Shown: one piece after another, positions 1,600 to 20,799 of the stretch
Numbering within the stretch: the stretch's first letter is position 1
Layout: each line of letters opens with the position of its first letter
Assembly: GCA_965219695.1 (NCBI GenBank)
Contig: CBDCOJ010000031.1
Span: 414,561 to 478,560 of the forward strand
Direction: 5' to 3'
Source of the DNA: Candidatus Poribacteria bacterium
GTDB lineage: Bacteria > Poribacteria > WGA-4E > WGA-3G
Length of the DNA stretch: 64,000 nt
Program-made: the position numbers and the translations under genes
Notes under the pieces: generated by a model
What the model was told of the DNA's origin: nothing
The model's input: only the letters and a program-made list of their open reading frames with translations
Databases searched by the model: none

Positions 1600-3915
1600 T
1601 TATATTCCGAAGGTATGGGTATATTTCATTAATAGTGTCCGTCTCTTCGTTAGTAATTTTCTCGGTATTTCATCTTCAAGGTATGTATTAAGATTTTCAT
1701 TATAAACCAACCATAAGTCGTTTCCCTCACCGAAATTGTATCGAAATCGGATATTTGTTGAGAATTGATCACTAACATTGCTGTATTGCACAAACGCATT
1801 TAGAGAGGCTTGCGTGTTGAACGCTGCCCGCGTCCGAAGCCGAACCACATGTGCATTAAACCCTTGATTGCGATTAGGAAAACGGACAACATTTATTTCA
1901 TATTCGCTACCCATCTCCAAATGTCGGGAGACATTCCATTTTGGCTTAACACCGAAATCAAATCGCCAACCATCGAAAAATCCACCAATGGAACAATCGA
2001 AATCAGTTCGGAATAAATTTCCACTTGGCATTTCATAACCACCTTTAACCTCAAAATTGGTATAACTTCCTGCGGGGACTATCGTTCCTTCAGGAAAGTC
2101 TTCATCTTTTTTGAAGTCTTCATAATCCATTTCCAAATCCATAGATACATTTGCGCCAGACTTCCACTGCAGATCAATAGCATATTCAGCGTTGGCAGAC
2201 TCAACAGACCAATCTTCATTTCGGAACGCTACATCTCCAGCAAACTGTAATGGGTTTACTTGTCTAAGTGAGGTTCGCTTGCCCATTAACCAATCATAGC
2301 GAATACTCCCTTCCAGTTGCGTGAAATCCTTCCGAGATGTGAACCCAATTCCGGGTAAAAAATCATCTCCGCGTCGAGCGGCAGTAAGCCGATAATCAAA
2401 ACCAACGTCGGTGCGTCGAGTCAGGTCTATTAGATACATTGAGGCATCCCAAAAGTTGAATGCTTTTTCTTGAATGATCTCATCTTCAAAAGTTTGTCCC
2501 CATTTAAGAGTTAAATATTCTTGTCCAAGCAATCGAAAAATGCCATCAATCCCATAGGCGAAGTTGTAATTGCCTTTTTCGTCAATACGGTTTGTGTACA
2601 TTAAACCAGCATAGGAGTGTGAATTAAAAACTTGGCGGCGCAGCCGCAGCACCCCAAAGTTTTCAGTCGGAATTTCATCTTTACGTGCCGTTTGCATGTC
2701 AAGAAAACCGAGATCCCAATTTCCAACACGTCCGACTAATCTCGCACCACCAATAATAGGAATTTGTTCATCATCTTGGATGCCAATTCGACGGCTATGA
2801 AAAAGCCGAGTACGTCCGACATAATTAAAAGAGAAAATCCCGGAACGTTCTTGGAAAAATTGCCGCTTCTCTGGAAAGAAAAGCGAAAATCGGCTTAAAT
2901 TAACTTGTTGATCATCTGCTTCCACTTGCGCGAAATCAGGGTTTAGCGTTGTATCCAGGGTTAGGTTACTCGTCCAGTTATATTTAATATCAAGTCCTAT
3001 GTTTCTCTCAAAATCGTTTTTCAGATGATATTCAGTTCCTGCATCCTTCAACGTCGGTGTTTGTTCAAGTCCGCCAACTACGTAAGGTGTAAAGTAAATC
3101 GGTTTTTTACTATGAATTTGTTCTAAAACCACGGGATGTGCTCGAGAAGGTGTATCAATACCGCGTTCAGGAGATAGCGCGGGGAAGACAAGGCGTTCAT
3201 TCTTTCGGGCAATATCTCGATAAGCGATTAACCCCATAACAACTTTACCGTTTTCATCCTGAAAACTTAAACTGGAAAAAGGAATCCGCATCTCAACAAA
3301 CCAACCCTCTTCATTCTGAACAGCAGCGACATCCCAATAAGTGTTCCAATGTTTGTTATTCGATTTTCCGTCCTTATAGATGGCTTTATCGCCTCGAATA
3401 CCAGCTGGGGTTGTCCAAAACTGCAAGGCAGATTTTTTATCGTTGAAGGTATCAAGAATGATTCCAAACCTATCATCTTCGCTTGAACGATCTCGGTAAA
3501 GCGAATTTACACGGATATCGGAGGGGTTGGAATCATAGCATCGCGCCGAACAGTAAAGATAGTCATTATCGTAAGCAATTCTGATTTCAGTTCTTTCGGT
3601 TGGTTCCCCCTGATATGTAGGCTTGTACATAGTGAAGTGCAGTGGCGGGATTTTCTGCCATACAGGTTCATCGCTCAAGCCATCAATTTTAATTGCTTCT
3701 GTTATACGGGTTAGTGATAGAGGTGTTTGGGCGTTAATAGTATTGACAGAAAAGAAAAAGATTAAAACTACGAATGGTATAATTATTTGTGTCAACCGTG
3801 TTATTTTTTTCTTTAAGACATCAAAATTGACACTGCTTGGGGCATCTGCATAATTAATATCGTAACGGTGATAAGGATTGTTCATTGTCTGAATCAGGAC
3901 TCTATTGACGCACAA
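1600..3915 (-). CDS. Secreted CBM9-like / DUF5916-family protein (carbohydrate-binding N-domain plus large beta-rich C-domain)
   Basis: 771 aa. Hydrophobic signal-like segment ('IIIPFVVLIFFFSVNTINAQTP'), then 'IKIDGLSDEPVWQKIPP...YDNDYLYCSARCYDSNP', which is typical of CBM9/DUF5916 proteins. The true start is probably internal to the listed ORF. Confidence 0.5.
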   Translation of the reverse strand: MCVNRVLIQTMNNPYHRYDINYADAPSSVNFDVLKKKITRLTQIIIPFVVLIFFFSVNTINAQTPLSLTRITEAIKIDGLSDEPVWQKIPPLHFTMYKPTYQGEPTERTEIRIAYDNDYLYCSARCYDSNPSDIRVNSLYRDRSSEDDRFGIILDTFNDKKSALQFWTTPAGIRGDKAIYKDGKSNNKHWNTYWDVAAVQNEEGWFVEMRIPFSSLSFQDENGKVVMGLIAYRDIARKNERLVFPALSPERGIDTPSRAHPVVLEQIHSKKPIYFTPYVVGGLEQTPTLKDAGTEYHLKNDFERNIGLDIKYNWTSNLTLDTTLNPDFAQVEADDQQVNLSRFSLFFPEKRQFFQERSGIFSFNYVGRTRLFHSRRIGIQDDEQIPIIGGARLVGRVGNWDLGFLDMQTARKDEIPTENFGVLRLRRQVFNSHSYAGLMYTNRIDEKGNYNFAYGIDGIFRLLGQEYLTLKWGQTFEDEIIQEKAFNFWDASMYLIDLTRRTDVGFDYRLTAARRGDDFLPGIGFTSRKDFTQLEGSIRYDWLMGKRTSLRQVNPLQFAGDVAFRNEDWSVESANAEYAIDLQWKSGANVSMDLEMDYEDFKKDEDFPEGTIVPAGSYTNFEVKGGYEMPSGNLFRTDFDCSIGGFFDGWRFDFGVKPKWNVSRHLEMGSEYEINVVRFPNRNQGFNAHVVRLRTRAAFNTQASLNAFVQYSNVSDQFSTNIRFRYNFGEGNDLWLVYNENLNTYLEDEIPRKLLTKRRTLLMKYTHTFGI

Positions 3916-6208: not shown

Positions 6209-6267
6209 GTAGGAGGGAACTCCGATTCCCGACTACAAACAGGTCGCGATTCGGAGATCGCTCCTAC
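6209..6267. repeat. Palindromic intergenic repeat, family A (GTAGGAGGGAACTCCGATTCCCGAC ... GTCGCGATTCGGAGATCGCTCCTAC)
   Basis: Two roughly 25-nt arms that are imperfect reverse complements. The same element recurs at 8834, 15004, 30163, 49446, 51971, 54640 and 57592. Confidence 0.8.
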
Positions 6268-10571: not shown

Positions 10572-12977
10572 TTAGTTGCTGTTGTGAAGAACAGCGTTTT
10601 GTGGGTTCCCTTCCTCTTCAAACGGTTCTTCCTGACCAATTCGCAGCTGGCGTTCAGCATCAACAACATCACGATTAATTTTACCGATACACCGATTCAA
10701 TTTATCTGTGAGGGCAGTGTGTCCTGCCATAGCACGACGAATTTGACGCAGTTGGTCAATCACAAGTCGGAAGGTTCTGACAAAATCACCCGGATCCAGT
10801 GCAGCATAGTCTGTTAATTTATCGAATTCGCACCCACGACTCCACGCCAACATAGCTGAACACAAACGAAGTTCCAAGATCGGAACAATTTCAGAGACGT
10901 TGAGTTGATTTTCTAACCCTTGGATGTCTAAAATTTCGTCCCAAGCTGTCCCCAGAATTGATAACAATCTTTTATCTTTTATCTTCTTAAAATAACCATC
11001 TTTGCGAGGTTCAGACACTATTGCTACCATGAGACAATTGATTTCATCTTCGGTTAACCGTTCGAAAAATCCCTTAAAGAGAAGTTGTGTTAATTGGAGT
11101 TCGTATCCATAGATATGTGATGCTGTGTTCCCGCGCGGCAGCAATGTCTGTGATTCAATGTACCCAAGCGTCTCAAGGACCTTTAAGCGGGCGGCTATCT
11201 GTTCTTGCTGATAATTTTGAATTGATGTCTGTTTTTGCTTTAAATTTTGAATACGTTGTTCCTGTTTACGGATTGCCTGATATCTATTAGTGCATTGTTT
11301 ACGTTCGTAACATTCGTGGCAAAGGTTTTTAGAGAGGCCAGCATTCAGCGTCTTTATTTTATTGTAAATCGGTGTCAGCTTCTTTTTTTGTTCCTTTTTC
11401 CTGGACTTTCCGCGAAAAGACCGGGATTTAAGGGATGCTAATTCCAACTGCAACCTTTCAATCCCTTTTTGGTTTGACCGCTTAAGTCGGTGATAACTTT
11501 CAATCTGTTTCATACCCTCAATGTTATCGTGGATACAAGTGGGGAGCGGTAGCGAAACACGTTTTTCCTCTAAAAGAGCAATCTGTTTATTAAGATCGTT
11601 CATGCGTCTATAATTTTGGTGATTGCTTAGACTCATCGTGTAGACATCGTAAATCTCGTCGCCAAATTTTTCATACAGATTGAGGATACTGGAATATGAG
11701 AGATTGAACTGGCTTGTGATGGGTTCAATGGTATTAGAAATGGCTTCGCTGACATCATTCTGTGTTGCATATTCTGGGTCAACTTGAGCATAGACATAAC
11801 CGACATCATCAATCCCGCGTCTTCCTGCCCTGCCTGCCATTTGATGATATTCCCGTGCTTTGAGATAACGGAAACTCACACCGTCAAATTTTTCCAAACT
11901 ATCAAACACTACTGTACATGCAGGCATGTTAATTCCAACAGCAAACGTCTCAGTGGTAAATAGGAGTTGAATTAATCCTGAAGTAAACAACCGCTCAACT
12001 ACCTCCTTCAGCGTAGGTAACATACCCGCATGATGATAGGCTATTCCGCAACTGATTAAGTGGCGAAAATCTGTAATTACCTTTTCTTCAACAATATCGA
12101 ATTGATTACAAAGCGCGTCAAATTTTTCTAAAATCTGTTCCTGCTTTTCTGAATCAAGCAACTCATGTTGTCCTGAAGAGGCATAATAGTGGGCGTTACC
12201 TTCACATCTTTTACGACTGAAACAGAAATAGAGACATGGTAGTCGGTTTTCTTTGTATAGGTAAGGTATTAATTCCGTGTTAATTATGCCTTTTGGTTTT
12301 TTAGATTTACCTTTATCCTGATCATTATCCTTACGTTTCTGTCTTTTTGCCATCTGTCGCAGATCGTTAAGGTGTCCCAATTTACCTATTCCAAAACCCG
12401 AAAAATAAAGGTGATGTTCTAAAGGCACAGGACGTTCTAACTCTTCAACCACTGCAATGTCAATTTCTCTAACGCTTTGCATCCACTCCGCAAATGAGTT
12501 GATGTTTGGAATTGTCGCACTCAGGCAGACAAATTTGATATGTTGCGGTGCAAAAATGATACTTTCTTCCCAGACGGTGCCGCGTTCAATGTCGTTGATA
12601 TAGTGGATTTCGTCAAAAATGACATAGGAAACATCTTGTAGTCTTTCTATATCATCAAAGATGATATTTCGGAATATCTCAGTGGTCATCAATAGGACTT
12701 GAGCATAAGGATTTAAGACGACATCGCCGGTTACGATACCAATTTTATCACCGTATTCAGATTGAAAATCTCTATATTTTTGATTACTAAGTGCCTTGAT
12801 CGGTGCGGTGTAGATAACGCGTTTGTTTGTCTGGAGACATTTTTCAACAGCGTATTCAGCAATAACAGTCTTACCTGCCCCAGTAGGTGCTGTTACTATC
12901 ACCGAGTGGTCTTGGTTAATTGCTGTAATTGCCTCTTCCTGAAACCGATCTAACGCAAAGCCTTTATATTCCATCAA
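10572..12977 (-). CDS. Ski2/HelY-like superfamily-2 RNA helicase (DEAD/DEAH core plus DSHCT-like C-terminal domain)
   Basis: 'VIVTAPTGAGKTVIAEY' (motif I), 'IFDEIHYI' (motif II DEIH), 'SATIPN', 'HHAGMLP' and 'QMAGRAGRRGID' (motif VI). The C-terminal region resembles the DOB1/SKI2/HelY C-terminal domain. Confidence 0.75.
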   Translation of the reverse strand: MMEYKGFALDRFQEEAITAINQDHSVIVTAPTGAGKTVIAEYAVEKCLQTNKRVIYTAPIKALSNQKYRDFQSEYGDKIGIVTGDVVLNPYAQVLLMTTEIFRNIIFDDIERLQDVSYVIFDEIHYINDIERGTVWEESIIFAPQHIKFVCLSATIPNINSFAEWMQSVREIDIAVVEELERPVPLEHHLYFSGFGIGKLGHLNDLRQMAKRQKRKDNDQDKGKSKKPKGIINTELIPYLYKENRLPCLYFCFSRKRCEGNAHYYASSGQHELLDSEKQEQILEKFDALCNQFDIVEEKVITDFRHLISCGIAYHHAGMLPTLKEVVERLFTSGLIQLLFTTETFAVGINMPACTVVFDSLEKFDGVSFRYLKAREYHQMAGRAGRRGIDDVGYVYAQVDPEYATQNDVSEAISNTIEPITSQFNLSYSSILNLYEKFGDEIYDVYTMSLSNHQNYRRMNDLNKQIALLEEKRVSLPLPTCIHDNIEGMKQIESYHRLKRSNQKGIERLQLELASLKSRSFRGKSRKKEQKKKLTPIYNKIKTLNAGLSKNLCHECYERKQCTNRYQAIRKQEQRIQNLKQKQTSIQNYQQEQIAARLKVLETLGYIESQTLLPRGNTASHIYGYELQLTQLLFKGFFERLTEDEINCLMVAIVSEPRKDGYFKKIKDKRLLSILGTAWDEILDIQGLENQLNVSEIVPILELRLCSAMLAWSRGCEFDKLTDYAALDPGDFVRTFRLVIDQLRQIRRAMAGHTALTDKLNRCIGKINRDVVDAERQLRIGQEEPFEEEGNPQNAVLHNSN

Positions 12978-14086: not shown

Positions 14087-14947
14087 ATGTTTCAAACATT
14101 GACAAATAACAGAATTCACATGTTATCCGTAGTTCTATTATTCTGTCTTGTTTCATTGCTATTTACTTTCTTACCCATCATGTTGGTGGAAGCACAACGA
14201 AATGAAGCAACAGTCGCTGGAAATTGGACGTTTGATGATGGCAGTGCCAAGGATAGTTCACGGAAAGGATTGAATGGTCAGTTTGTGGGAGAGCCGAAAT
14301 CCGTAAATGGTATTGTCGGAAAAGCATTACAGTTTAATGGCAAAAGCGATGCTGTTAATATCCCTGATTCTGTTGATATCAACACTGGTGGTCCATATAC
14401 CAACCGAACGGTCGCAGCATTTTTTAAATGTGCTGACATTAGTAAAAATCAGAAACAAGTTATTTATCAAGAAGGTGGTGGCACACGAGGTTTAGCCATC
14501 TATGTGCACAACGGTAAGGTCTACGTTGGAGGTTGGAATCGAGCAGAGTACAATTGGGATGGTGCTTGGTCATCAGTGAAAATTCGATCGAATCGGTGGC
14601 ATCACGTTGCCTTAGTCATTCGGGATGCTTCTGATAGAGTCGAGAACGATAAGTTTGAAATGTGGTTAGATGGTAAACTCATCGCTAAAGAGAAGGGTGG
14701 GCAACTTCATATGCATGGCAATAATATCTCAATCGGGCATGTCACTCAGAAGACGGTCTACCATGACGGTATTCAAGAAGGCAACAATGTAGACTGGTTT
14801 AGCGGTGTCATTGACGAAGTCATCGTCTACAATTCGGCATTTGACAGGACAGATTTAACAAAAATCGCACAACCCTTAAGTATTGTACCAAAGGGAAAAT
14901 CCACAACCACGTGGGGATACCTGAAATCTAAGCGAACCGAGAATTAG
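14087..14947 (+). CDS. Secreted LamG / concanavalin-A-like lectin domain protein
   Basis: Signal peptide ('MLSVVLLFCLVSLLFTFLPIMLVEA'). 'GKALQFNGKSDAVNIPD...WHHVALV...VDEVIVYNSA' is the Laminin_G_3-type pattern. Confidence 0.6.
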   Translation: MFQTLTNNRIHMLSVVLLFCLVSLLFTFLPIMLVEAQRNEATVAGNWTFDDGSAKDSSRKGLNGQFVGEPKSVNGIVGKALQFNGKSDAVNIPDSVDINTGGPYTNRTVAAFFKCADISKNQKQVIYQEGGGTRGLAIYVHNGKVYVGGWNRAEYNWDGAWSSVKIRSNRWHHVALVIRDASDRVENDKFEMWLDGKLIAKEKGGQLHMHGNNISIGHVTQKTVYHDGIQEGNNVDWFSGVIDEVIVYNSAFDRTDLTKIAQPLSIVPKGKSTTTWGYLKSKRTEN

Positions 14948-15003
14948 TTTGTATTTCTATTTGAGGGTGTGTAAAGTTTTGGTTATTACCCCGGATATAC
15001 TTT

Positions 15004-15055
15004 GTAGGAGGGAACTCCGATTCCCGACAGTTCGCGATTCGGAGATCGCTCCTAC
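15004..15055. repeat. Family A palindromic repeat
   Basis: GTAGGAGGGAACTCCGATTCCCGAC agttc GCGATTCGGAGATCGCTCCTAC. Confidence 0.8.
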
Positions 15056-15223
15056 AAGTTTTATCTGCATATTTCTACAAAAACTTTACATACCCTCTAT
15101 TTGATTTTAATTTGACAACCCGCCTCTGAATATAGTACAATATTTGTTCCATACGAAAAAGATATATTTTGCTTAAGCCGATTCAATTCCGGTGTGAGCA
15201 CCATCCTTAGGCATAAAAACTAA

Positions 15224-15412
15224 ACTCTGGGTCGTGTGGATGCGTTATCGGGTCGCAGGTTCGAATCCTGCCAGCAGGTGAAGTGTGTAATGCGAAGCCT
15301 GCTGTAGCTAAGTGGTAGAGCGATGTATTCCGACTTCTTATCCAGAGTTGTTTGTGCGGGCCGAAGTATTGCGTTATCTACCAAAACTGATCGCAATATA
15401 CACCTTGCCCGC
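15224..15412 (+). ncRNA. Y-RNA-like RNA 1: permuted tRNA-like module plus candidate Ro-binding stem-loop (YrlA-type tRNA mimic)
   Basis: T-arm GCAGG-TTCGAAT-CCTGC (15255..15271). Acceptor 3' strand CAGCAGG (15272..15278), a 19-nt loop, then acceptor 5' strand CCTGCTG (15298..15304) with perfect complementarity. TA, then D-arm GCTAAGTGGTAGAGC (15307..15321). The module is closed by CTCTGG (15225) / CCAGAG (15342). Then GCGGGCCGAAG (15356) ... internal hairpin ATTGCG/CGCAAT ... CCTTGCCCGC (15403..15412). It lies directly upstream of rsr. Confidence 0.55.
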
Positions 15413-15446
15413 TACCATGTGAAAATCGAAGATAATCCAAACGCAG

Positions 15447-15661
15447 CTCCGGGTCGAGAGAGTGTGTTATCTTTAATGATACGGTCGCAGGTTCGAGTCC
15501 TGTTAGTAAGTTTGTGTTGGACATAAACTTGCTGTAGCTCAGATGGTAGAGCATATCAAAACGGACTCCAATCCTTATCCGGAGCCTTCTTTGGCGGGCC
15601 GAAGTATTCCGTTAACTTTATCAATACACGCTAAGATGCACGTAATACACACCTTGCCCGC
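15447..15661 (+). ncRNA. Y-RNA-like RNA 2 (second tandem copy, diverged)
   Basis: The architecture matches RNA 1 with compensatory changes. The closing helix is CTCCGG / CCGGAG. T-arm GCAGG-TTCGAGT-CCTGT. Acceptor TAGTAAG / CTTGCTG pairs with 2 G-U wobbles. D-arm GCTCAGATGGTAGAGC. GGCGGGCCGAAG (15593..15604) ... CCTTGCCCGC (15652..15661). Confidence 0.55.
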
Positions 15662-15683
15662 GCTCCATAAAAGATGCGAAATC

Positions 15684-17327
15684 ATGAGTTATTTACGACA
15701 ATATTCTCCATTACATCCAAACCAGCGGCAGCCGTTGGATGAACAGCAGGTAGAAAACTCTGCTGGCGGATATGTTTATCCTGTTTCCATTTGGACAAAC
15801 TTAGACCGGTTTCTAATTTTAGGAACCGAAGGTGGATCCTATTATGCAAAAGAGCAGGATTTGACAAAGGAAAATGTTGATTCTGTTAAGCAGTGCATTG
15901 CAGAGGATGGTGTTCAGGTTGTTGAACGGATTCGGGAGATTTCTGTTTCTGGGCGTGCACCGAAAAACGATCCCGCTTTATACGCATTGGCACTCGCTTT
16001 CACCCACGGAAATACAGCCACAAAACAGAAGGTGCAAGAGATATTCTGTGACGTGGCGCGTATCGGAACGCACCTATTCAACTTCGTAGCCTTTGTTGAC
16101 GGTATGCGCGGATGGGGTAGAGCATTGCGCCGGTTAATCGGCGAATGGTATCGCACAAAAGACGATAATGCTTTGGCATATCAAGTCCTGAAATATCAGT
16201 CTCGCAACAGATGGCGGCATGCAGACGTGCTTGCGAAGTGCCATTACGGCGAAAACCGAGGTATTTATCGCTGGATGAAAGGACTTGATACCGGAAAACG
16301 AATTGTGCATCGCGGTTTAGAAGAGAAAAAAGTTTCTACCGTTTACGATGCAACCGATGCTTTGCCTGAACTGCTTGCTGGATATGAAGAACTAAAACTC
16401 ACAGAGAAATGTGCAGATGTGATTAAGCTCATTGAAACGCATCAATTTACCCACGAAATGGTGTCAAATCAGTGGAAAGATGATCCCGATGTTTGGGCAG
16501 CGTTATTGGCTAACATGCCTGTGATGGCAACGGTGCGAAATCTCGGTAAGATGACACAGGTTGGTTTGCTGAAACCTTTTGCGCCAGAGGTGCAGACTGT
16601 GTTGAAGAGACTTTCCGATGAGGCGATTCAGCGGTCACTTATCCACCCTATTCAGATTTTGATGGCGTTGACAACATACAGATCAGGCAAGGGAGTCAAA
16701 GGCAGTTTGACATGGGAACCTGTTCCACAGATTGTTGATGGTTTGGACGCTGCATTCTATATGGCGTTTGATAACGTGGAACCGAGCCATAAGAACACCT
16801 TCTTGGCACTTGATGTTTCTGGTTCAATGATGGGTGGTACTGTAGCAGGTTGCGTAGGACTTACGCCGCGTAATGCTTCCGCTGCGATGGCACTGGTAAC
16901 TGCACGCACTGAACCGAATTACCATTTCTTTGGATTTTCAGACGATTTTGTAAGTCTGCCAATTTCAGCAACTGATAAGTTGGCAAGTGTAATTGAAGCT
17001 GTTTCTGGATTGCCGCATGGTCGCACTGATTGTTCGCTTCCTATACTCTACGCAATAAAAGAAAAATTAGTAGTAGATATATTCACAATCTACACAGATA
17101 GTGAAACTTGGTATGGTGATATTCATCCAAAGACCGCATTAGACATGTATCGGCAAGAGATGGGAAGACCCGCAAAATTAGCGGTTGTCGCGATGGTAGC
17201 GAACAAATTTTCGATTGCCGATCCGAAGGATGCTGGTATGCTGGATTTTGTCGGGTTTGATACTGCCACACCCGCATTGCTCAGCGACTTTGCAAAAGAT
17301 GCTGAAATTATCTTCGAAGACGCGTAG
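15684..17327 (+). CDS. rsr: Ro60-related protein (TROVE domain plus C-terminal vWA/MIDAS), Rsr ortholog
   Basis: 'GGYVYPVSIWTNLDRFLILGTEGGSYYAKEQDLTKEN...PALYALALAF' aligns by eye to the Ro60 TROVE N-terminus. The C-terminal 'FLALDVSGSMMGG' is a MIDAS motif. The start is moved to ATG 15684 because the tracked start (15543) lies inside the D-arm of the upstream structured RNA. Confidence 0.85.
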   Translation: MSYLRQYSPLHPNQRQPLDEQQVENSAGGYVYPVSIWTNLDRFLILGTEGGSYYAKEQDLTKENVDSVKQCIAEDGVQVVERIREISVSGRAPKNDPALYALALAFTHGNTATKQKVQEIFCDVARIGTHLFNFVAFVDGMRGWGRALRRLIGEWYRTKDDNALAYQVLKYQSRNRWRHADVLAKCHYGENRGIYRWMKGLDTGKRIVHRGLEEKKVSTVYDATDALPELLAGYEELKLTEKCADVIKLIETHQFTHEMVSNQWKDDPDVWAALLANMPVMATVRNLGKMTQVGLLKPFAPEVQTVLKRLSDEAIQRSLIHPIQILMALTTYRSGKGVKGSLTWEPVPQIVDGLDAAFYMAFDNVEPSHKNTFLALDVSGSMMGGTVAGCVGLTPRNASAAMALVTARTEPNYHFFGFSDDFVSLPISATDKLASVIEAVSGLPHGRTDCSLPILYAIKEKLVVDIFTIYTDSETWYGDIHPKTALDMYRQEMGRPAKLAVVAMVANKFSIADPKDAGMLDFVGFDTATPALLSDFAKDAEIIFEDA

Positions 17328-17383
17328 AAAATCAACAATTACTAATACCAATTCTATGAATTATTTTCTCTTTTGAAAAATAT

Positions 17384-17416
17384 AAGAGGCGCAATGAATT
17401 GCGCGACTACGAACGG
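17384..17416 (-). repeat. Hairpin repeat family C (CGTAGTCGCGCAATTCATTGCGCCTCTTA), reverse orientation
   Basis: This is the reverse complement of the motif at 49589 and 57703. The core is the GCGCAAT-TC-ATTGCGC hairpin. Confidence 0.7.
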
Positions 17417-17583
17417 TCTATTTCTTTAAGAGAAGTTATTTTTGAGAAACGGTATAACATTCTTAGTTTTGTATTGGACATCTACAGAGGTAGATGTCCT
17501 TTTTTATTTATAGGTTTGAAATATCCTTGTTGCAAATTTAATGGCAGGTATGATACGATAACGGTATCAATTCAACGGGAGGT

Positions 17584-18441
17584 GTGAAAATGAACCAAAA
17601 CGATTATAATATCACCGATTCGGAGATTAATTTCTTCAAGACATTCGGTTATTTAAGTTTTCCGCAATTGATGGCAGACAGGATTGAAGCGATTCAGGAC
17701 GCGTTTGAAACCGTCTGGGCAGAACGCGGCGGTGGACATAACGGCAAACCGCACGAAGGAACAGCGCGCTCTTGTATTGTGCCTTTCATTGATCAGAGTG
17801 AAGAGTTGTCATCGCTGCTGGATGACCCGCGGATTCTGGCGATTGCCAAAACCTTGCTCGGAGACGATTTTAACTATATGGGAAGTGATGGGAATTTCTA
17901 TGTCGGTGATACAGGATGGCATTCTGATGGTGGACATAAACTGGAAGACCCAATGCACATAAAGATTGCATTCTACCTTGATCCACTTTCACGTGACACT
18001 GGCGCACTTCGTGTTATTCCGGGTAGCCATCTGTTCGGAGATAACTATGCTGATGGGTTGAGTCAGCAGATTGGAAGAAGTCAGGAAACGTGGGAAATAC
18101 ATGGAAAAGATGTGCCCGCAGTCGTCTTTGAAACAACACCTGGCGATCTTGTGCTTTTTAACCATAATACCAAGCATGCAGCGTTTGGCGGCGGTAAACG
18201 CAGACGTATGTTCACGATGAATCTTTGCCAGCGATATCCAGAGGATAAGTTGGATGCATTGCAAGCATATATCGCGGGTTCAGCAAGGTTCTGGATTGAT
18301 CGGAAATATGGTGAAAAAATGCTAAACTCCGCTACACCGGAACGGCAGATACATCTTGAACAGGTGAGGGCGAACGATGGACATCTCGCGGAGTTATCTC
18401 GTCAAGCACAGGAACGGATGAGTGAACCTTCACGCGGATGA
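17584..18441 (+). CDS. Phytanoyl-CoA dioxygenase (PhyH)-family Fe(II)/2-oxoglutarate oxygenase
   Basis: 285 aa. 'GWHSDGGH' and 'HNTKHAAFGG' give an HxD...H facial-triad pattern typical of the PhyH family. Confidence 0.55.
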   Translation: MKMNQNDYNITDSEINFFKTFGYLSFPQLMADRIEAIQDAFETVWAERGGGHNGKPHEGTARSCIVPFIDQSEELSSLLDDPRILAIAKTLLGDDFNYMGSDGNFYVGDTGWHSDGGHKLEDPMHIKIAFYLDPLSRDTGALRVIPGSHLFGDNYADGLSQQIGRSQETWEIHGKDVPAVVFETTPGDLVLFNHNTKHAAFGGGKRRRMFTMNLCQRYPEDKLDALQAYIAGSARFWIDRKYGEKMLNSATPERQIHLEQVRANDGHLAELSRQAQERMSEPSRG

Positions 18442-19286: not shown

Positions 19287-20799
19287 TACTATAGTTTGGA
19301 CAGTTTTAATTTTTTTAGAGACAAAAAGCAGAAAAGAGGTTATCCTTTCAGTATAACATTTACTTTGAAAGGACATCAAAATGGATCCTCTTTCCCGCTT
19401 AGAAACTATGTTATCAGATTATCAACACCTCTTCAAGTATAAAAACTTCAACCATTTTCGCACTTTTGTCACGGGTTTGATAAATACTCCGCATCGTGGA
19501 ACGATGACACAGATATATCAATCTACAAGACCTTCAACAACCTATTGGACATTGCCGAAGTTTCTTGATCGCAGCCACTGGTGTATTGACAAACTTACAT
19601 CGGTTTTGACACGGCAAGTTCAAAGCGTTTTTAGCGAAGGTGTCTATGTTTATGATGTGACCAAGTCTACCCATGAAGGTTCTGATCAATATGGCACACA
19701 TTTTTTCATAAACACCCGATATAACAAGCGCAATAAGAACCAATCCAAGTTCCACCACGGGCACGAGTTCGGTGCGATAGGATGGCTCTGTGAAACGCCA
19801 CAAGGCACAAGTCTTTTTCCGTTAGCTGCACGGGTCGTGTGTCCCGGAAAAAAACGGGATACGAGTCTTGAGGTGCTCAAGCGCATCTGTGCCAATATAC
19901 CACCCGGTCTCATCGTATTTGACAGAGGTTTTAATAGACGCAAAGTATTTACTTTGATCCTTTCACAAGGACATCACTTACTCTGTCGCGCAAAGTCAAA
20001 TGCTGTGTTCTATCAGATACCAACGCGACCGAAAGAACCGAAACGAGGCAGACCACGTCGCTATGGAAATCGTGTGCATCTCCCCTATCTGAAGTATAGA
20101 GATATTGTCGTGAAAAACAAGACACTTTCTGTCGCAGACAAAGTCGTGCGGACAAAGATGTGTTCAGAGAATGTCAGGCTCGTTGTGATACGCACACGCA
20201 AGAAGAAATCTAAACCGTATCACTATTTTTGTTTATTTACCTCTGATTTACAACTCCCCGTAGTCGATGTCATCCGACACTATAAAAATCGGTGGCAGAT
20301 TGAAACGGCATTTCGCGATGTGAAACAGAACTTCGGCTTTGATACATATCAAATCCGAAAGCGTAAAAGTTTGAACCGGTTCGCACAACTGAGTTTTGTT
20401 GCAGCAAGTCTCACACAACTTATTTTCACAAATATAGTATCGGATACAGAAAAAGAGGATATGTCTGTTAGCGTAGCAGACGTGTTGAGCACACTGAATA
20501 TGCAGTGGTATAAAGCAAAATATCTGACACGCGGATTGATGGTCGCTTATATGCGACGCTGTTTCCAACAACACTATTTTTCTGCGAGTAACGATCCGAA
20601 ACAAAACTTAGCAAAAAATCTAAAAATAGATGAAGACACCACATGAAACTGAATAGATTACACATTTTTGACGATCCTGTCAAAAATAATCGCAAAATAC
20701 AGTGATTCCAACAAAATTCAGAGAAGCAGGAATGCTTACAAAACAGACTGAACACTTGTTCGGAAGTCCTCAAAGGATAAAATTGTCCAAACTACAGTA
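19287..20799 (+). mobile_element. Insertion sequence (IS4/IS701-like) with terminal inverted repeats
   Basis: A single DDE-transposase ORF is flanked by inverted repeats TACTATAGTTTGGACA (19287..19302) and TGTCCAAACTACAGTA (20784..20799). The element is about 1.5 kb. Confidence 0.55.
19381..20646 (+). CDS. DDE transposase (IS4/IS701-like)
   Basis: 421 aa. The N-terminal '...FRTFVTGLI...' region and overall length fit the IS701/IS4 transposase architecture. The family assignment is from memory and was not searched. Confidence 0.6.
   Translation: MDPLSRLETMLSDYQHLFKYKNFNHFRTFVTGLINTPHRGTMTQIYQSTRPSTTYWTLPKFLDRSHWCIDKLTSVLTRQVQSVFSEGVYVYDVTKSTHEGSDQYGTHFFINTRYNKRNKNQSKFHHGHEFGAIGWLCETPQGTSLFPLAARVVCPGKKRDTSLEVLKRICANIPPGLIVFDRGFNRRKVFTLILSQGHHLLCRAKSNAVFYQIPTRPKEPKRGRPRRYGNRVHLPYLKYRDIVVKNKTLSVADKVVRTKMCSENVRLVVIRTRKKKSKPYHYFCLFTSDLQLPVVDVIRHYKNRWQIETAFRDVKQNFGFDTYQIRKRKSLNRFAQLSFVAASLTQLIFTNIVSDTEKEDMSVSVADVLSTLNMQWYKAKYLTRGLMVAYMRRCFQQHYFSASNDPKQNLAKNLKIDEDTT

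Follow-up and report, generated by a model that had tools for sequence, protein, structure and literature searches.

A probable Y RNA-Rsr locus in Candidatus Poribacteria: two YrlA-like tRNA mimics and two bulged hairpins upstream of rsr

In this genome of Candidatus Poribacteria, which are sponge-associated bacteria, the gene rsr for the Ro60 orthologue is directly preceded by two repeat units, raising the question of which RNAs, and how many, are encoded there. The units were analyzed within the window, that is, the whole 64,000-nucleotide (64-kb) stretch of DNA under study. They form an array at 15224-15661 on the + strand, are 69% identical to each other overall, and stop 22 nt short of the rsr start codon (ATG 15684) on the same strand. 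Each is composed of a tRNA-like module inside an outer helix, followed after 7-8 nt by a bulged hairpin (Table 1). The region is very probably a Candidatus Poribacteria Y RNA-Rsr locus with the order YrlA (subtype a), hairpin, YrlA (subtype b), hairpin, rsr.

Table 1. Positions of the elements of the array and of rsr in the window.
Feature	Position	Strand	Details or evidence
Sigma-70-type promoter-like site, putative function	15112..15141	+	TTGACA-18-TACAAT, 11/12 matches
YrlA-like tRNA-mimic Y RNA, subtype a (unit 1)	15224..15348	+	Rfam RF02553, model R1, covariation
Unit 1 outer bulged helix	15224-15235 / 15338-15348	+	includes ACUCUGG 15224-15230 / CCAGAGU 15342-15348
Unit 1 "anticodon-stem" P2	15238-15244 / 15324-15330	+	
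Unit 1 T-arm	15255-15271	+	GCAGG-UUCGAAU-CCUGC
Unit 1 7-bp acceptor hairpin	15272-15304	+	3' strand CAGCAGG 15272-15278; 5' strand CCUGCUG 15298-15304
Unit 1 D-arm	15307-15321	+	GCUAAGUGGUAGAGC, preceded by UA
Probable hairpin Y RNA 1 (YrlB-like)	15356..15412	+	GCGGGCCGAAG...CCUUGCCCGC; model R2, covariation
Hairpin 1 helices			lower GCGGGC/GCCCGC; bulged C, G.U, A-U; upper GUAUUGCG/CGCAAUAU
YrlA-like tRNA-mimic Y RNA, subtype b (unit 2)	15446..15585	+	Rfam RF02553, model R1
Unit 2 outer helix	15446-15457 / 15575-15585	+	includes GCUCCGG 15446-15452 / CCGGAGC 15579-15585
Unit 2 P2	15460-15466 / 15562-15568	+	
Unit 2 V hairpin	15468-15481	+	
Unit 2 T-arm	15487-15503	+	
Unit 2 extended acceptor hairpin	15504-15534	+	UAGUAAG 15504-15510 / CUUGCUG 15528-15534
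Unit 2 D-arm	15537-15552	+	GCUCAGAUGGUAGAGC
Probable hairpin Y RNA 2 (YrlB-like)	15594..15661	+	GCGGGCCGAAG...CCUUGCCCGC; model R2, covariation
rsr, Ro60 orthologue, 547 aa	15684..17327	+	TROVE ring + vWA; Pfam, PDB, homologues
Intrinsic-terminator-like hairpin + T run	17476..17509	+	first + strand site past the promoter-like site

The product of rsr contains the Pfam domains PF05731 (TROVE, 1e-32) and PF25045 (vWA_Ro60, 3e-60), aligns over residues 3-539 with solved chains of Ro60 (PDB 9nen/1yvp) and D. radiodurans Rsr (2nvo) at E values of 1e-117 to 1e-122, and is 79-91% identical to Candidatus Poribacteria proteins, in agreement with the Ro60/TROVE+vWA gene call made in an earlier note on this DNA. 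Mechanical prediction yields two open reading frames across the array, one of 67 aa (15323-15526) and one of 594 aa (15543-17327), the ATG of which is located within the D loop of unit 2. Homologues of Rsr are mostly 537-548 aa in length and their alignment begins at residue 1 of the product from ATG 15684. The earlier remark that the 67-aa frame is spurious and that the rsr start had been placed in a D-arm is right. A public protein identical to the Rsr of the window is recorded at 594 aa, the length of the frame from 15543, and is flagged here as an annotation error, matching a frame that starts inside a Y RNA.

Both tRNA-like modules display the order T-arm, closed 7-bp acceptor hairpin and D-arm, enclosed by P2 and the outer helix, and the sequence features originally quoted for them were all found, to within 1-2 nt. 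This rotated order is the defining, published architecture of YrlA (Chen et al. 2014, PMC4201824; Wang et al. 2018, bioRxiv 10.1101/312249), for which a structure from S. Typhimurium is available (PDB 6cu1). The permutation of tRNA parts proposed at the outset is real, according to the Rfam alignment, covariation and rotation in ARAGORN, but is not a new twist, since it already defines YrlA. With the Rfam YrlA model (RF02553), unit 1 scored 33.2 bits (E 2.3e-5), the match spanning the whole model with the outer stem included, and unit 2 scored 27.9 bits (E 7.6e-4). Both values are below the gathering score of 69 bits; at gathering thresholds Rfam returned no matches in the window, and YrlA is visible by E-value only. 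YrlA-like elements from an Anaerolineae locus also fell below 69 (36.8 and 26.2 bits), and the threshold therefore appears strict for distant phyla. The Rfam Y_RNA family (RF00019), which the earlier note had named alongside YrlA, and other families gave no match at E up to 10 within 15100-15750.

Comparison with other genomes carries most of the argument. At least one YrlA-like module was found on the same strand in 29/29 Candidatus Poribacteria rsr loci, and at least one hairpin in 28/29, giving comparative sets of 41 modules and 46 hairpins. Of the cells in the module alignment, 96.5% are paired, a share that drops to 47% or less once the partner is slid; compensatory double changes occur at 13 pairs, including all seven acceptor pairs, and none of 500 shuffles was as good. 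RNAalifold independently recovered the same cloverleaf parts. In the hairpins, 97.8% are paired and six pairs display double changes, the covariation exceeding that of both shuffled and slid controls. The helices thus covary across 29 Poribacteria genomes, as the earlier note would lead one to expect at homologous rsr loci. Regarding single sequences, the fold z-score was -5.15 for the YrlA of unit 2, modest for unit 1 and hairpin 1 (-2.2 and -2.8), and short of significance for hairpin 2 (-0.9); with z-scores this modest, support comes from comparison and not from thermodynamics. The minimum-energy fold of the whole 442-nt array pairs the strands of hairpin 1 with those of hairpin 2 around the second YrlA. 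This fold was rejected as a conserved structure: it is out of reach of genomes with a single unit, and the pairs within each hairpin covary.

Covariance models built from the Poribacteria homologues, R1 for the YrlA module and R2 for the hairpin, scored 116.5 and 105 bits on units 1 and 2, and 70.1 and 67.1 bits on hairpins 1 and 2, respectively. Their matches in the window are confined to the four array elements, all on the rsr strand. A dispersed repeat or mobile element is ruled out, as copies occur only beside rsr and the gene order LamG - Y RNAs - rsr - PhyH - AP-endonuclease-family is conserved. The window carries two YrlA+hairpin pairs and other Poribacteria from one to four; YrlA subtypes a and b diverged anciently and are usually present together.

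The textbook T- and D-arms, together with weak Rfam matches to tRNA (19.1 bits, gathering score 29) and tmRNA (8.3 bits, gathering score 47), might suggest that the units represent tRNA genes that have decayed or been permuted, or parts of a two-piece, permuted tmRNA, lying beside rsr by chance. Such an origin is extremely improbable: an outer helix takes the place of the missing anticodon arm, compensatory changes keep all helices across 29 species, unlike decay, the copies are restricted to the same strand beside rsr, and ARAGORN detected no tRNA or tmRNA in native order in the 64-kb window. The same scan rules out an ordinary or intron-containing tRNA, an outcome that would have spoken against the initial reading. 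After rotation and addition of an artificial anticodon loop, unit 1 was called a tRNA; rotated unit 2 was called one only without its 8-nt UAUCAAAA spacer, and nothing was called with the spacer kept. The Poribacteria modules share their rotated order, in which the 5' acceptor strand and D-arm come after the T-arm and 3' acceptor strand, with two-piece tmRNAs and with the circularly permuted tRNA genes of Cyanidioschyzon merolae. Processing of those genes yields functional tRNA or tmRNA whose CCA end is open, whereas the modules have no anticodon arm and their acceptor is a capped hairpin.

The reading of the locus as YrlA-class tRNA mimics beside Ro60, with rotated tRNA parts, is thus supported by the Rfam YrlA matches, the identity of Rsr and covariation, and the bacterial precedent invoked in the earlier note holds. 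The criterion used by Chen et al. (2014) is a position no more than about 4 kb from rsr, on its strand, and both modules and 29/29 loci are so located relative to the Ro60 orthologue. As in YrlA, a candidate 5' Ro-site strand is followed by an "anticodon" stem, the YUAY that begins the V region, the T-arm, a closed acceptor stem-loop, the D-arm and the 3' strands; the sequences of the T and D arms hardly vary, and the G15:C48 Levitt pair is present. UUAUC after P2, C before the T stem and G after A14 in the D loop occur in nearly all copies. Binding by Rsr and modification by TruB and DusA further characterize the YrlA class. Unlike YrlA, both strands of the putative Ro helix are recognizable in the Poribacteria modules, every copy has an acceptor of the full 7 bp, two subtypes exist, and the 5' motif is GGGUCG(A/U)N as opposed to the strict GNCGAAN0-1G defined by Chen et al. 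(2014). The modules of the window read GUCGUGUG and GUCGAGAG at this position, where the strict motif is absent; orthologous copies reading GUCGAAG (L002, L026) or GUCGAAUG (L007, L008) conform to it.

The outer helix had been described as closing the module. It is indeed present and covarying, but is probably more than a clamp, as its counterpart in the YrlA model is the outer stem, which binds Rsr. GGGUCG and CUUAUCC do not vary in 41/41 modules and the neighboring stems covary; because the helix carries this bulged-C core, it is itself a candidate Ro site. Model R2 likewise recognizes the outer helix in canonical YrlAs of Anaerolineae and of L034 but gave no match to the outer helices of Poribacteria YrlAs, whose Ro site, if any, is therefore divergent.

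Regarding the hairpins, both contain GCCGAAG, a perfect GNCGAAN0-1G motif, and hairpin 2 has the same bulged-C helix as hairpin 1. Their 5' strand, GGGCCGAAG, is similar to GGUCCGA, which X. laevis Ro60 contacts (quoted by Chen et al. 2014), so the likeness to the start of metazoan Y RNAs stands for this motif but does not extend to the unmatched Rfam Y_RNA model: only the bulged-C helix core is similar, and RNA polymerase III context is absent. A Ro helix with both strands, a bulged C, G.U and A-U is likewise shared with D. radiodurans Yrn1 and Yrn2; unlike in Yrn1, the tRNA-like domain is of YrlA type. The earlier note had taken the hairpin as the Ro-binding helix of its unit. The covarying hairpin and its perfect motif uphold a Ro-type helix but, since the outer helix is itself a candidate Ro site, the hairpin is probably not the Ro-binding helix of the same RNA but a second, YrlB-like Y RNA, by analogy with Mycobacterium smegmatis, and the array would comprise four RNA modules rather than two genes. 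M. smegmatis YrlA and YrlB are both encoded upstream of rsr and arise as distinct RNAs from a shared precursor (Chen et al. 2014). The tRNA-like YrlA with a 7-bp acceptor followed by a hairpin RNA, 5' of rsr, is common to both loci; unlike in M. smegmatis, the pair is duplicated in the window, and the likeness is one of layout, from which processing and binding are extrapolated here. YrlB is defined operationally by Rsr binding and has no detectable sequence orthologues outside Salmonella (Chen et al. 2014).

Alternatively, each unit of about 190-215 nt may be one bipartite Y RNA with a clamped module and the hairpin as its sole Ro site, giving two RNAs. A U-rich linker of 8-10 nt separates YrlA from hairpin in 43/43 copies that have a hairpin, in both subtypes and all species, with no promoter-like or terminator-like site in this interval (scan of 14900-17600). 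Moreover, the strict GNCGAA is missing from the YrlA modules of the window and perfect in the hairpins, and the failure of R2 on the outer helices points the same way. However, those helices align to the Rsr-binding stem, and their core GGGU[C]G / UUAUCC is kept as in other YrlAs, e.g., GCGGGUCGAAAG...UUUAUCCGC in L028. The modules also occur apart, with a YrlA only in L025 and hairpins without YrlA in L037 and, distally, in L005, L007 and L008; YrlA and hairpin subtypes re-assort between genomes; and the M. smegmatis RNAs are separate. Two bipartite RNAs are accordingly a less probable arrangement, though one to be taken seriously. Somewhat more doubtful still is a reading of each unit as one bivalent Y RNA, with two Ro-type bulged helices 8-10 nt apart in the rsr leader. 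If so, one transcript could load two or more Rsr rings, or the hairpin could serve Rsr and leave the divergent YrlA stem free for another partner, with feedback on rsr expression.

The promoter-like site is the top site in a scan of 14900-17600, in which neither an internal + strand promoter between the two units nor a + strand terminator-like site between 15141 and 17476 was found. A site with at least 10/12 matches is located 7-100 nt 5' of the first Y RNA element in 24/29 Poribacteria loci (25/30 with the window). The last hairpin lies 15-26 nt before the ATG in 22/28 hairpin-carrying sequences (window and loci), with a GGUGA-like Shine-Dalgarno sequence about 10 nt past its end. A single conserved promoter-like site, the lack of an internal terminator-like site and this spacing would suit a region (15142-15683) acting only in cis, as a structured rsr 5' leader that releases no stable small RNAs; Rsr binding to the hairpin near the ribosome-binding site might, for example, autoregulate translation. 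Nevertheless, six loci carry insertions of 62-215 nt between hairpin and rsr, extra pairs are present 1-4 kb from rsr in L015 and L006, YrlA-like copies lie downstream of rsr in the related loci L034 and L028, and every characterized relative is a trans-acting Rsr-bound RNA, so a purely cis-acting leader is improbable. Release of RNAs would not preclude a role in cis.

For the favored Y RNA-Rsr locus, the following process can be envisaged. The near-consensus promoter-like site would drive a single transcript containing YrlA subtype a, hairpin, YrlA subtype b, hairpin and the rsr mRNA. Subsequently, the small RNAs may be cut from this precursor at the U-rich linkers. Such cutting has been demonstrated for M. 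smegmatis YrlA/YrlB and D. radiodurans Yrn1/Yrn2, the Deinococcus Y RNAs also being made polycistronically. Each RNA would bind the Rsr ring through a core of a base pair, bulged C, G.U and A-U; the YrlA modules have GGGU[C]GA / UUAUCC here, the hairpins GGGC[C]GAAG / CUUGCCC. The bulged C lies at 15233 and 15455 in the YrlA modules and at 15362 and 15600 in the hairpins. In line with proposals for YrlA, and for Yrn1 with PNPase, the L-shaped tRNA-like domain could be the end that acts as effector or tether, or one that resists nucleases. We infer transcription, processing, Rsr binding and function of the array RNAs from these relatives.

The array is well supported as a new example of an already described RNA family and not as a novel RNA type. 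With it, the range of YrlA-type tRNA-mimic Y RNAs grows to include Candidatus Poribacteria, whose YrlA-like RNAs the Rfam gathering score misses; a literature search found no paper linking Poribacteria to Ro60 or Y RNAs. The 41 modules and 46 hairpins constitute a deep comparative set with clear covariation in both. Furthermore, the invariably 7-bp acceptor and the constant YrlA-to-hairpin spacing offer two leads as to what the tRNA-like module does. In M. smegmatis, a 7-bp acceptor makes YrlA a substrate of RNase P as well as of the CCA-adding enzyme (Chen et al. 2014); by analogy, RNase P might open the subtype a acceptor and a CCA tail might be added, resulting in a split tRNA-like RNP.

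Two repeat units, each composed of a YrlA-like module and a hairpin, lie within 15224-15661 on the plus strand, 5' of rsr, the gene of the Ro60 orthologue Rsr, confirming the observation in the earlier note of two units with rotated tRNA parts. In both, the outer helix encloses from 5' to 3' the P2 stem, a V region that opens with UUAUC, a canonical T-arm, an acceptor hairpin with a loop-closed stem of 7 bp, UA, a canonical D-arm, and the 3' strands of P2 and of the outer helix. The modules fall into subtype a (short V, ~123 nt) and subtype b (V hairpin and 14-bp acceptor hairpin, ~140 nt). In the subtype-a acceptor loop (window 15279-15297 and homologues), RUGUAAUGYRAAA is kept while all seven stem pairs below it covary; this loop might be a determinant of protein contact or processing. 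In the window the hairpin follows its module after 7-8 nt; over 43/43 YrlA-hairpin pairs including those of other loci, the linker is U-rich and 8-10 nt long (consensus YYNUCUUUGU). The hairpin of unit 2 ends 22 nt before the ATG at 15684.

Features of the rsr locus and its surroundings (window coordinates; R1 and R2, covariance models of the YrlA-like modules and of the hairpins)
Feature	Position	Strand	Detail
Ski2-like DEAD/DSHCT RNA helicase	10572-12977	-	2.2 kb upstream, divergent
MITE/REP-like element, palindromic	14960-15110		core GTAGGAGGGAACTCCGATTCCCGAC at 15004-15028
Promoter-like site	15112-15141		TTGACA-18-TACAAT, 11/12 matches
Unit 1 module, R1 match	15224-15348	+	116.5 bits; outer helix ACUCUGG/CCAGAGU; T-arm GCAGG-UUCGAAU-CCUGC
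RF02553 YrlA match	15225-15350		33.2 bits, E 2.3e-5, full model covered
R2 match, unit 1	15354-15412		70.1 bits
Unit 1 hairpin	15356-15412	+	GCGGGCCGAAG...CCUUGCCCGC
Unit 2 module, R1 match	15446-15585	+	105 bits; outer helix GCUCCGG/CCGGAGC; T-arm GCAGG-UUCGAGU-CCUGU
RF02553 YrlA match	15479-15558		27.9 bits, E 7.6e-4
R2 match, unit 2	15592-15661		67.1 bits
Unit 2 hairpin	15594-15661	+	GCGGGCCGAAG...CCUUGCCCGC
rsr	15684-17327	+	547 aa
DDE transposase	19381-20646	+	2 kb 3' of rsr

At gathering thresholds, no Rfam family matched anywhere in the window; in E-value mode, RF02553 (YrlA) was the only credible family in 15100-15750. Its two matches, together with a protein carrying TROVE and Ro60-vWA domains, support the interpretation as a tRNA-mimic YrlA-class Y RNA/Ro60 locus, with corrections regarding the permutation, the outer helix and the hairpin. 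Since the YrlA consensus structure itself places T-arm, acceptor hairpin and D-arm in that order, with two stems around them, the rotated order is the family's own architecture. The permutation is therefore present but is not a novel twist; the structure of the YrlA tRNA-like domain has been solved and already contains it (Wang et al. 2018, bioRxiv 10.1101/312249), so that the most striking feature of the earlier reading was previously described. YrlAs are defined as RNAs encoded beside rsr that bear a 5' motif, GNCGAAN0-1G, together with a domain built from V, T, acceptor-stem (AS) and D stem-loops, located near rsr in >250 species; in M. smegmatis, YrlB, a second RNA of hairpin type, lies with YrlA 5' of rsr in one precursor, and the 7-bp acceptor stem makes YrlA a substrate for RNase P and for the addition of CCA (Chen et al. 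2014, PMC4201824). The present locus belongs to these known YrlA/YrlB-type systems with Rsr, here in the phylum Poribacteria, with two subtypes and duplicated YrlA-hairpin pairs, and would not surprise a specialist. The useful products are a covariation-rich alignment and a corrected rsr start, and two leads are the acceptor stem held at 7 bp and the constant YrlA-hairpin spacing.

In native order, ARAGORN found neither tRNA nor tmRNA in the window, a result that speaks against the ordinary-tRNA explanation raised earlier. After in-silico rotation (acceptor 5' strand, D-arm, P2, an artificial 7-nt loop, P2, V, T-arm, acceptor 3' strand), unit 1 was called as a tRNA; unit 2 was called only when the 8-nt UAUCAAAA spacer after the D-arm was also deleted, and nothing was found with the spacer retained. 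A natural experiment appears to agree with this test of tRNA likeness: in L027, an rsr locus from another genome, a single outer helix encloses two tandem copies of the T-arm/acceptor hairpin/D-arm block (3717-3914), and the Rfam tRNA model gives 45.7 bits at the internal junction from D-arm to T-arm. The duplication may be genuine or may stem from the assembly. Separately, a 140-nt element 5' of rsr in Candidatus Fredericiella danica (locus L029, 3545-3684) matches the full-length Rfam tRNA model at 51.7 bits. It folds into an open 7-bp acceptor stem, D-arm, V hairpin and T-arm, with a ~70-nt insert containing GCGGGCCGAUAG and YUAY replacing the anticodon arm; ARAGORN called no tRNA in it, and two hairpin-type Y-like RNAs lie 3' of it. 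The element resembles a YrlA relative whose parts stand in tRNA order, without permutation.

Rsr shares 79-91% identity with proteins from Candidatus Poribacteria MAGs, and a scan of GTDB species genomes yielded 29 rsr loci from Poribacteria plus four outgroups. The same elements were present 5' of rsr on the same strand in 29/29 Poribacteria loci, and 41 tRNA-like modules (alignment A1) and 46 hairpins (A2) were aligned. With the cloverleaf-like structure imposed, 96.5% of A1 cells formed standard pairs; sliding the 3' partner by 1-3 columns lowered this to 34-47%, and 0/500 shuffles reached the observed values in four of five measures. Both-side changes occurred in 13/37 A1 pairs, including three of seven in P2, one T-stem and one D-stem pair, and all seven acceptor pairs, whose covariation had been proposed earlier. 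The covariation claimed for the closing helix likewise held, its U-A/C-G switch comprising 25 UA and 14 CG with zero mismatches. RNAalifold, given no structure, recovered the same helices plus a covarying terminal pair (columns 1/149), and the helix therefore starts exactly at 15224 and 15446. Among the A2 hairpins, 97.8% of cells were paired, with compensatory changes in 6/16 pairs. A dispersed repeat was rejected, as R1 and R2, made from A1 and A2 respectively, matched the 64-kb window in four places only, all beside rsr.

Additional copies were observed at other loci: four YrlA-hairpin pairs across 4 kb 5' of rsr in L015 (1-3979; proximal YrlA degenerate, 23.5 bits), and a second pair 2.4 kb 5' of rsr in L006 (1433-1638). 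In L034/L035 (2253-6182), Rsr is 53% identical to that of the window and is encoded among many small ORFs without Pfam match, rsr being flanked by three YrlA-like and three hairpin RNAs (hairpin-hairpin-YrlA-rsr, with more downstream); in L037, Rsr is 70% identical, near a primase/D5_N gene, with a hairpin only (2920-2977). These settings may be phage or mobile-element contexts.

The outer helix had been taken simply to close the module, with Ro binding assigned to the hairpin downstream of it. In unit 1, the outer helix is aligned with the YrlA model's outer stem, where the Rsr site has been proposed in other YrlAs. In 41/41 modules, 5' GGGUCG and 3' CUUAUCC are invariant while neighbouring stems covary, forming a core of G-C, G-C, G.U, U-A, bulged C, G.U and A-U; the hairpins share C-G, bulged C, G.U and A-U. 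The Anaerolineae YrlA of L028 reads GCGGGUCGAAAG...UUUAUCCGC, and R2 also matches its outer helix and those of the L034 YrlAs. Given this alignment, the invariant core and the R2 matches, both helices are candidate Ro sites, and the hairpin remains a candidate but not the sole one. Its GCCGAAG is a perfect GNCGAAN0-1G, more canonical than the module sites, which in the window (GUCGUGUG and GUCGAGAG) are divergent.

As to the products, four processed RNAs are modestly favoured. Besides the M. smegmatis precedent of YrlA and YrlB (Chen et al. 2014), L025 has YrlA alone, no YrlA accompanies the distal hairpins of L005, L007 and L008 or the hairpin of L037, and YrlA and hairpin subtypes pair differently among genomes, the order being a then b in the window and b then a in L002, L003 and L026. 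The uniform linker, 8-10 nt in all 43 pairs, would suit two bipartite RNAs, one per unit, a reading we consider less likely.

The true rsr start is likely 15684. The alignment with homologues, mostly 537-548 aa, begins at residue 1 of the product of this ATG. This product resembles Ro60/Rsr proteins of solved structure (E 1e-117 to 1e-122). The mechanical ORFs, rightly suspected as spurious, are one of 67 aa (15323-15526) and an rsr ORF of 594 aa from 15543, inside the D loop of the unit-2 module; the latter start would add 47 residues overlapping this module and its hairpin (15543-15683). A public protein (P0001), identical to Rsr of the window, is recorded at the same 594 aa.

Promoter-like sites with at least 10/12 matches, 7-100 nt 5' of the first element, occurred in 24/29 Poribacteria loci (25/30 with the window). 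In both L009 and L010, only 7-8 nt separate the end of the -10 hexamer from the YrlA helix, consistent with transcription starting at the helix. Since the first plus-strand terminator-like site is that at 17476-17509, 3' of rsr, the rsr transcript probably has the array as its 5' portion. In 22/28 hairpin-bearing sequences (window and loci), the distance from the end of the proximal hairpin to the ATG is 15-26 nt, a spacing that would allow a cis-regulatory side role; in six loci, this interval carries insertions of 62-215 nt. The conserved gene order is LamG - Y RNAs - rsr - PhyH - AP-endonuclease-family gene, with neither RtcB nor PNPase genes among the rsr neighbours. The helicase gene also lies upstream in L026, L014 and L006. 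The MITE/REP-like element stands just 5' of the promoter-like site of the Y RNAs; the window contains six copies of its core, where 0 are expected (others at 6209, 30206, 49447(-), 51972(-) and 57592). In L020 and L026 the same element is inserted 3' of the last hairpin, ahead of rsr, and L009 and L017 carry it too.
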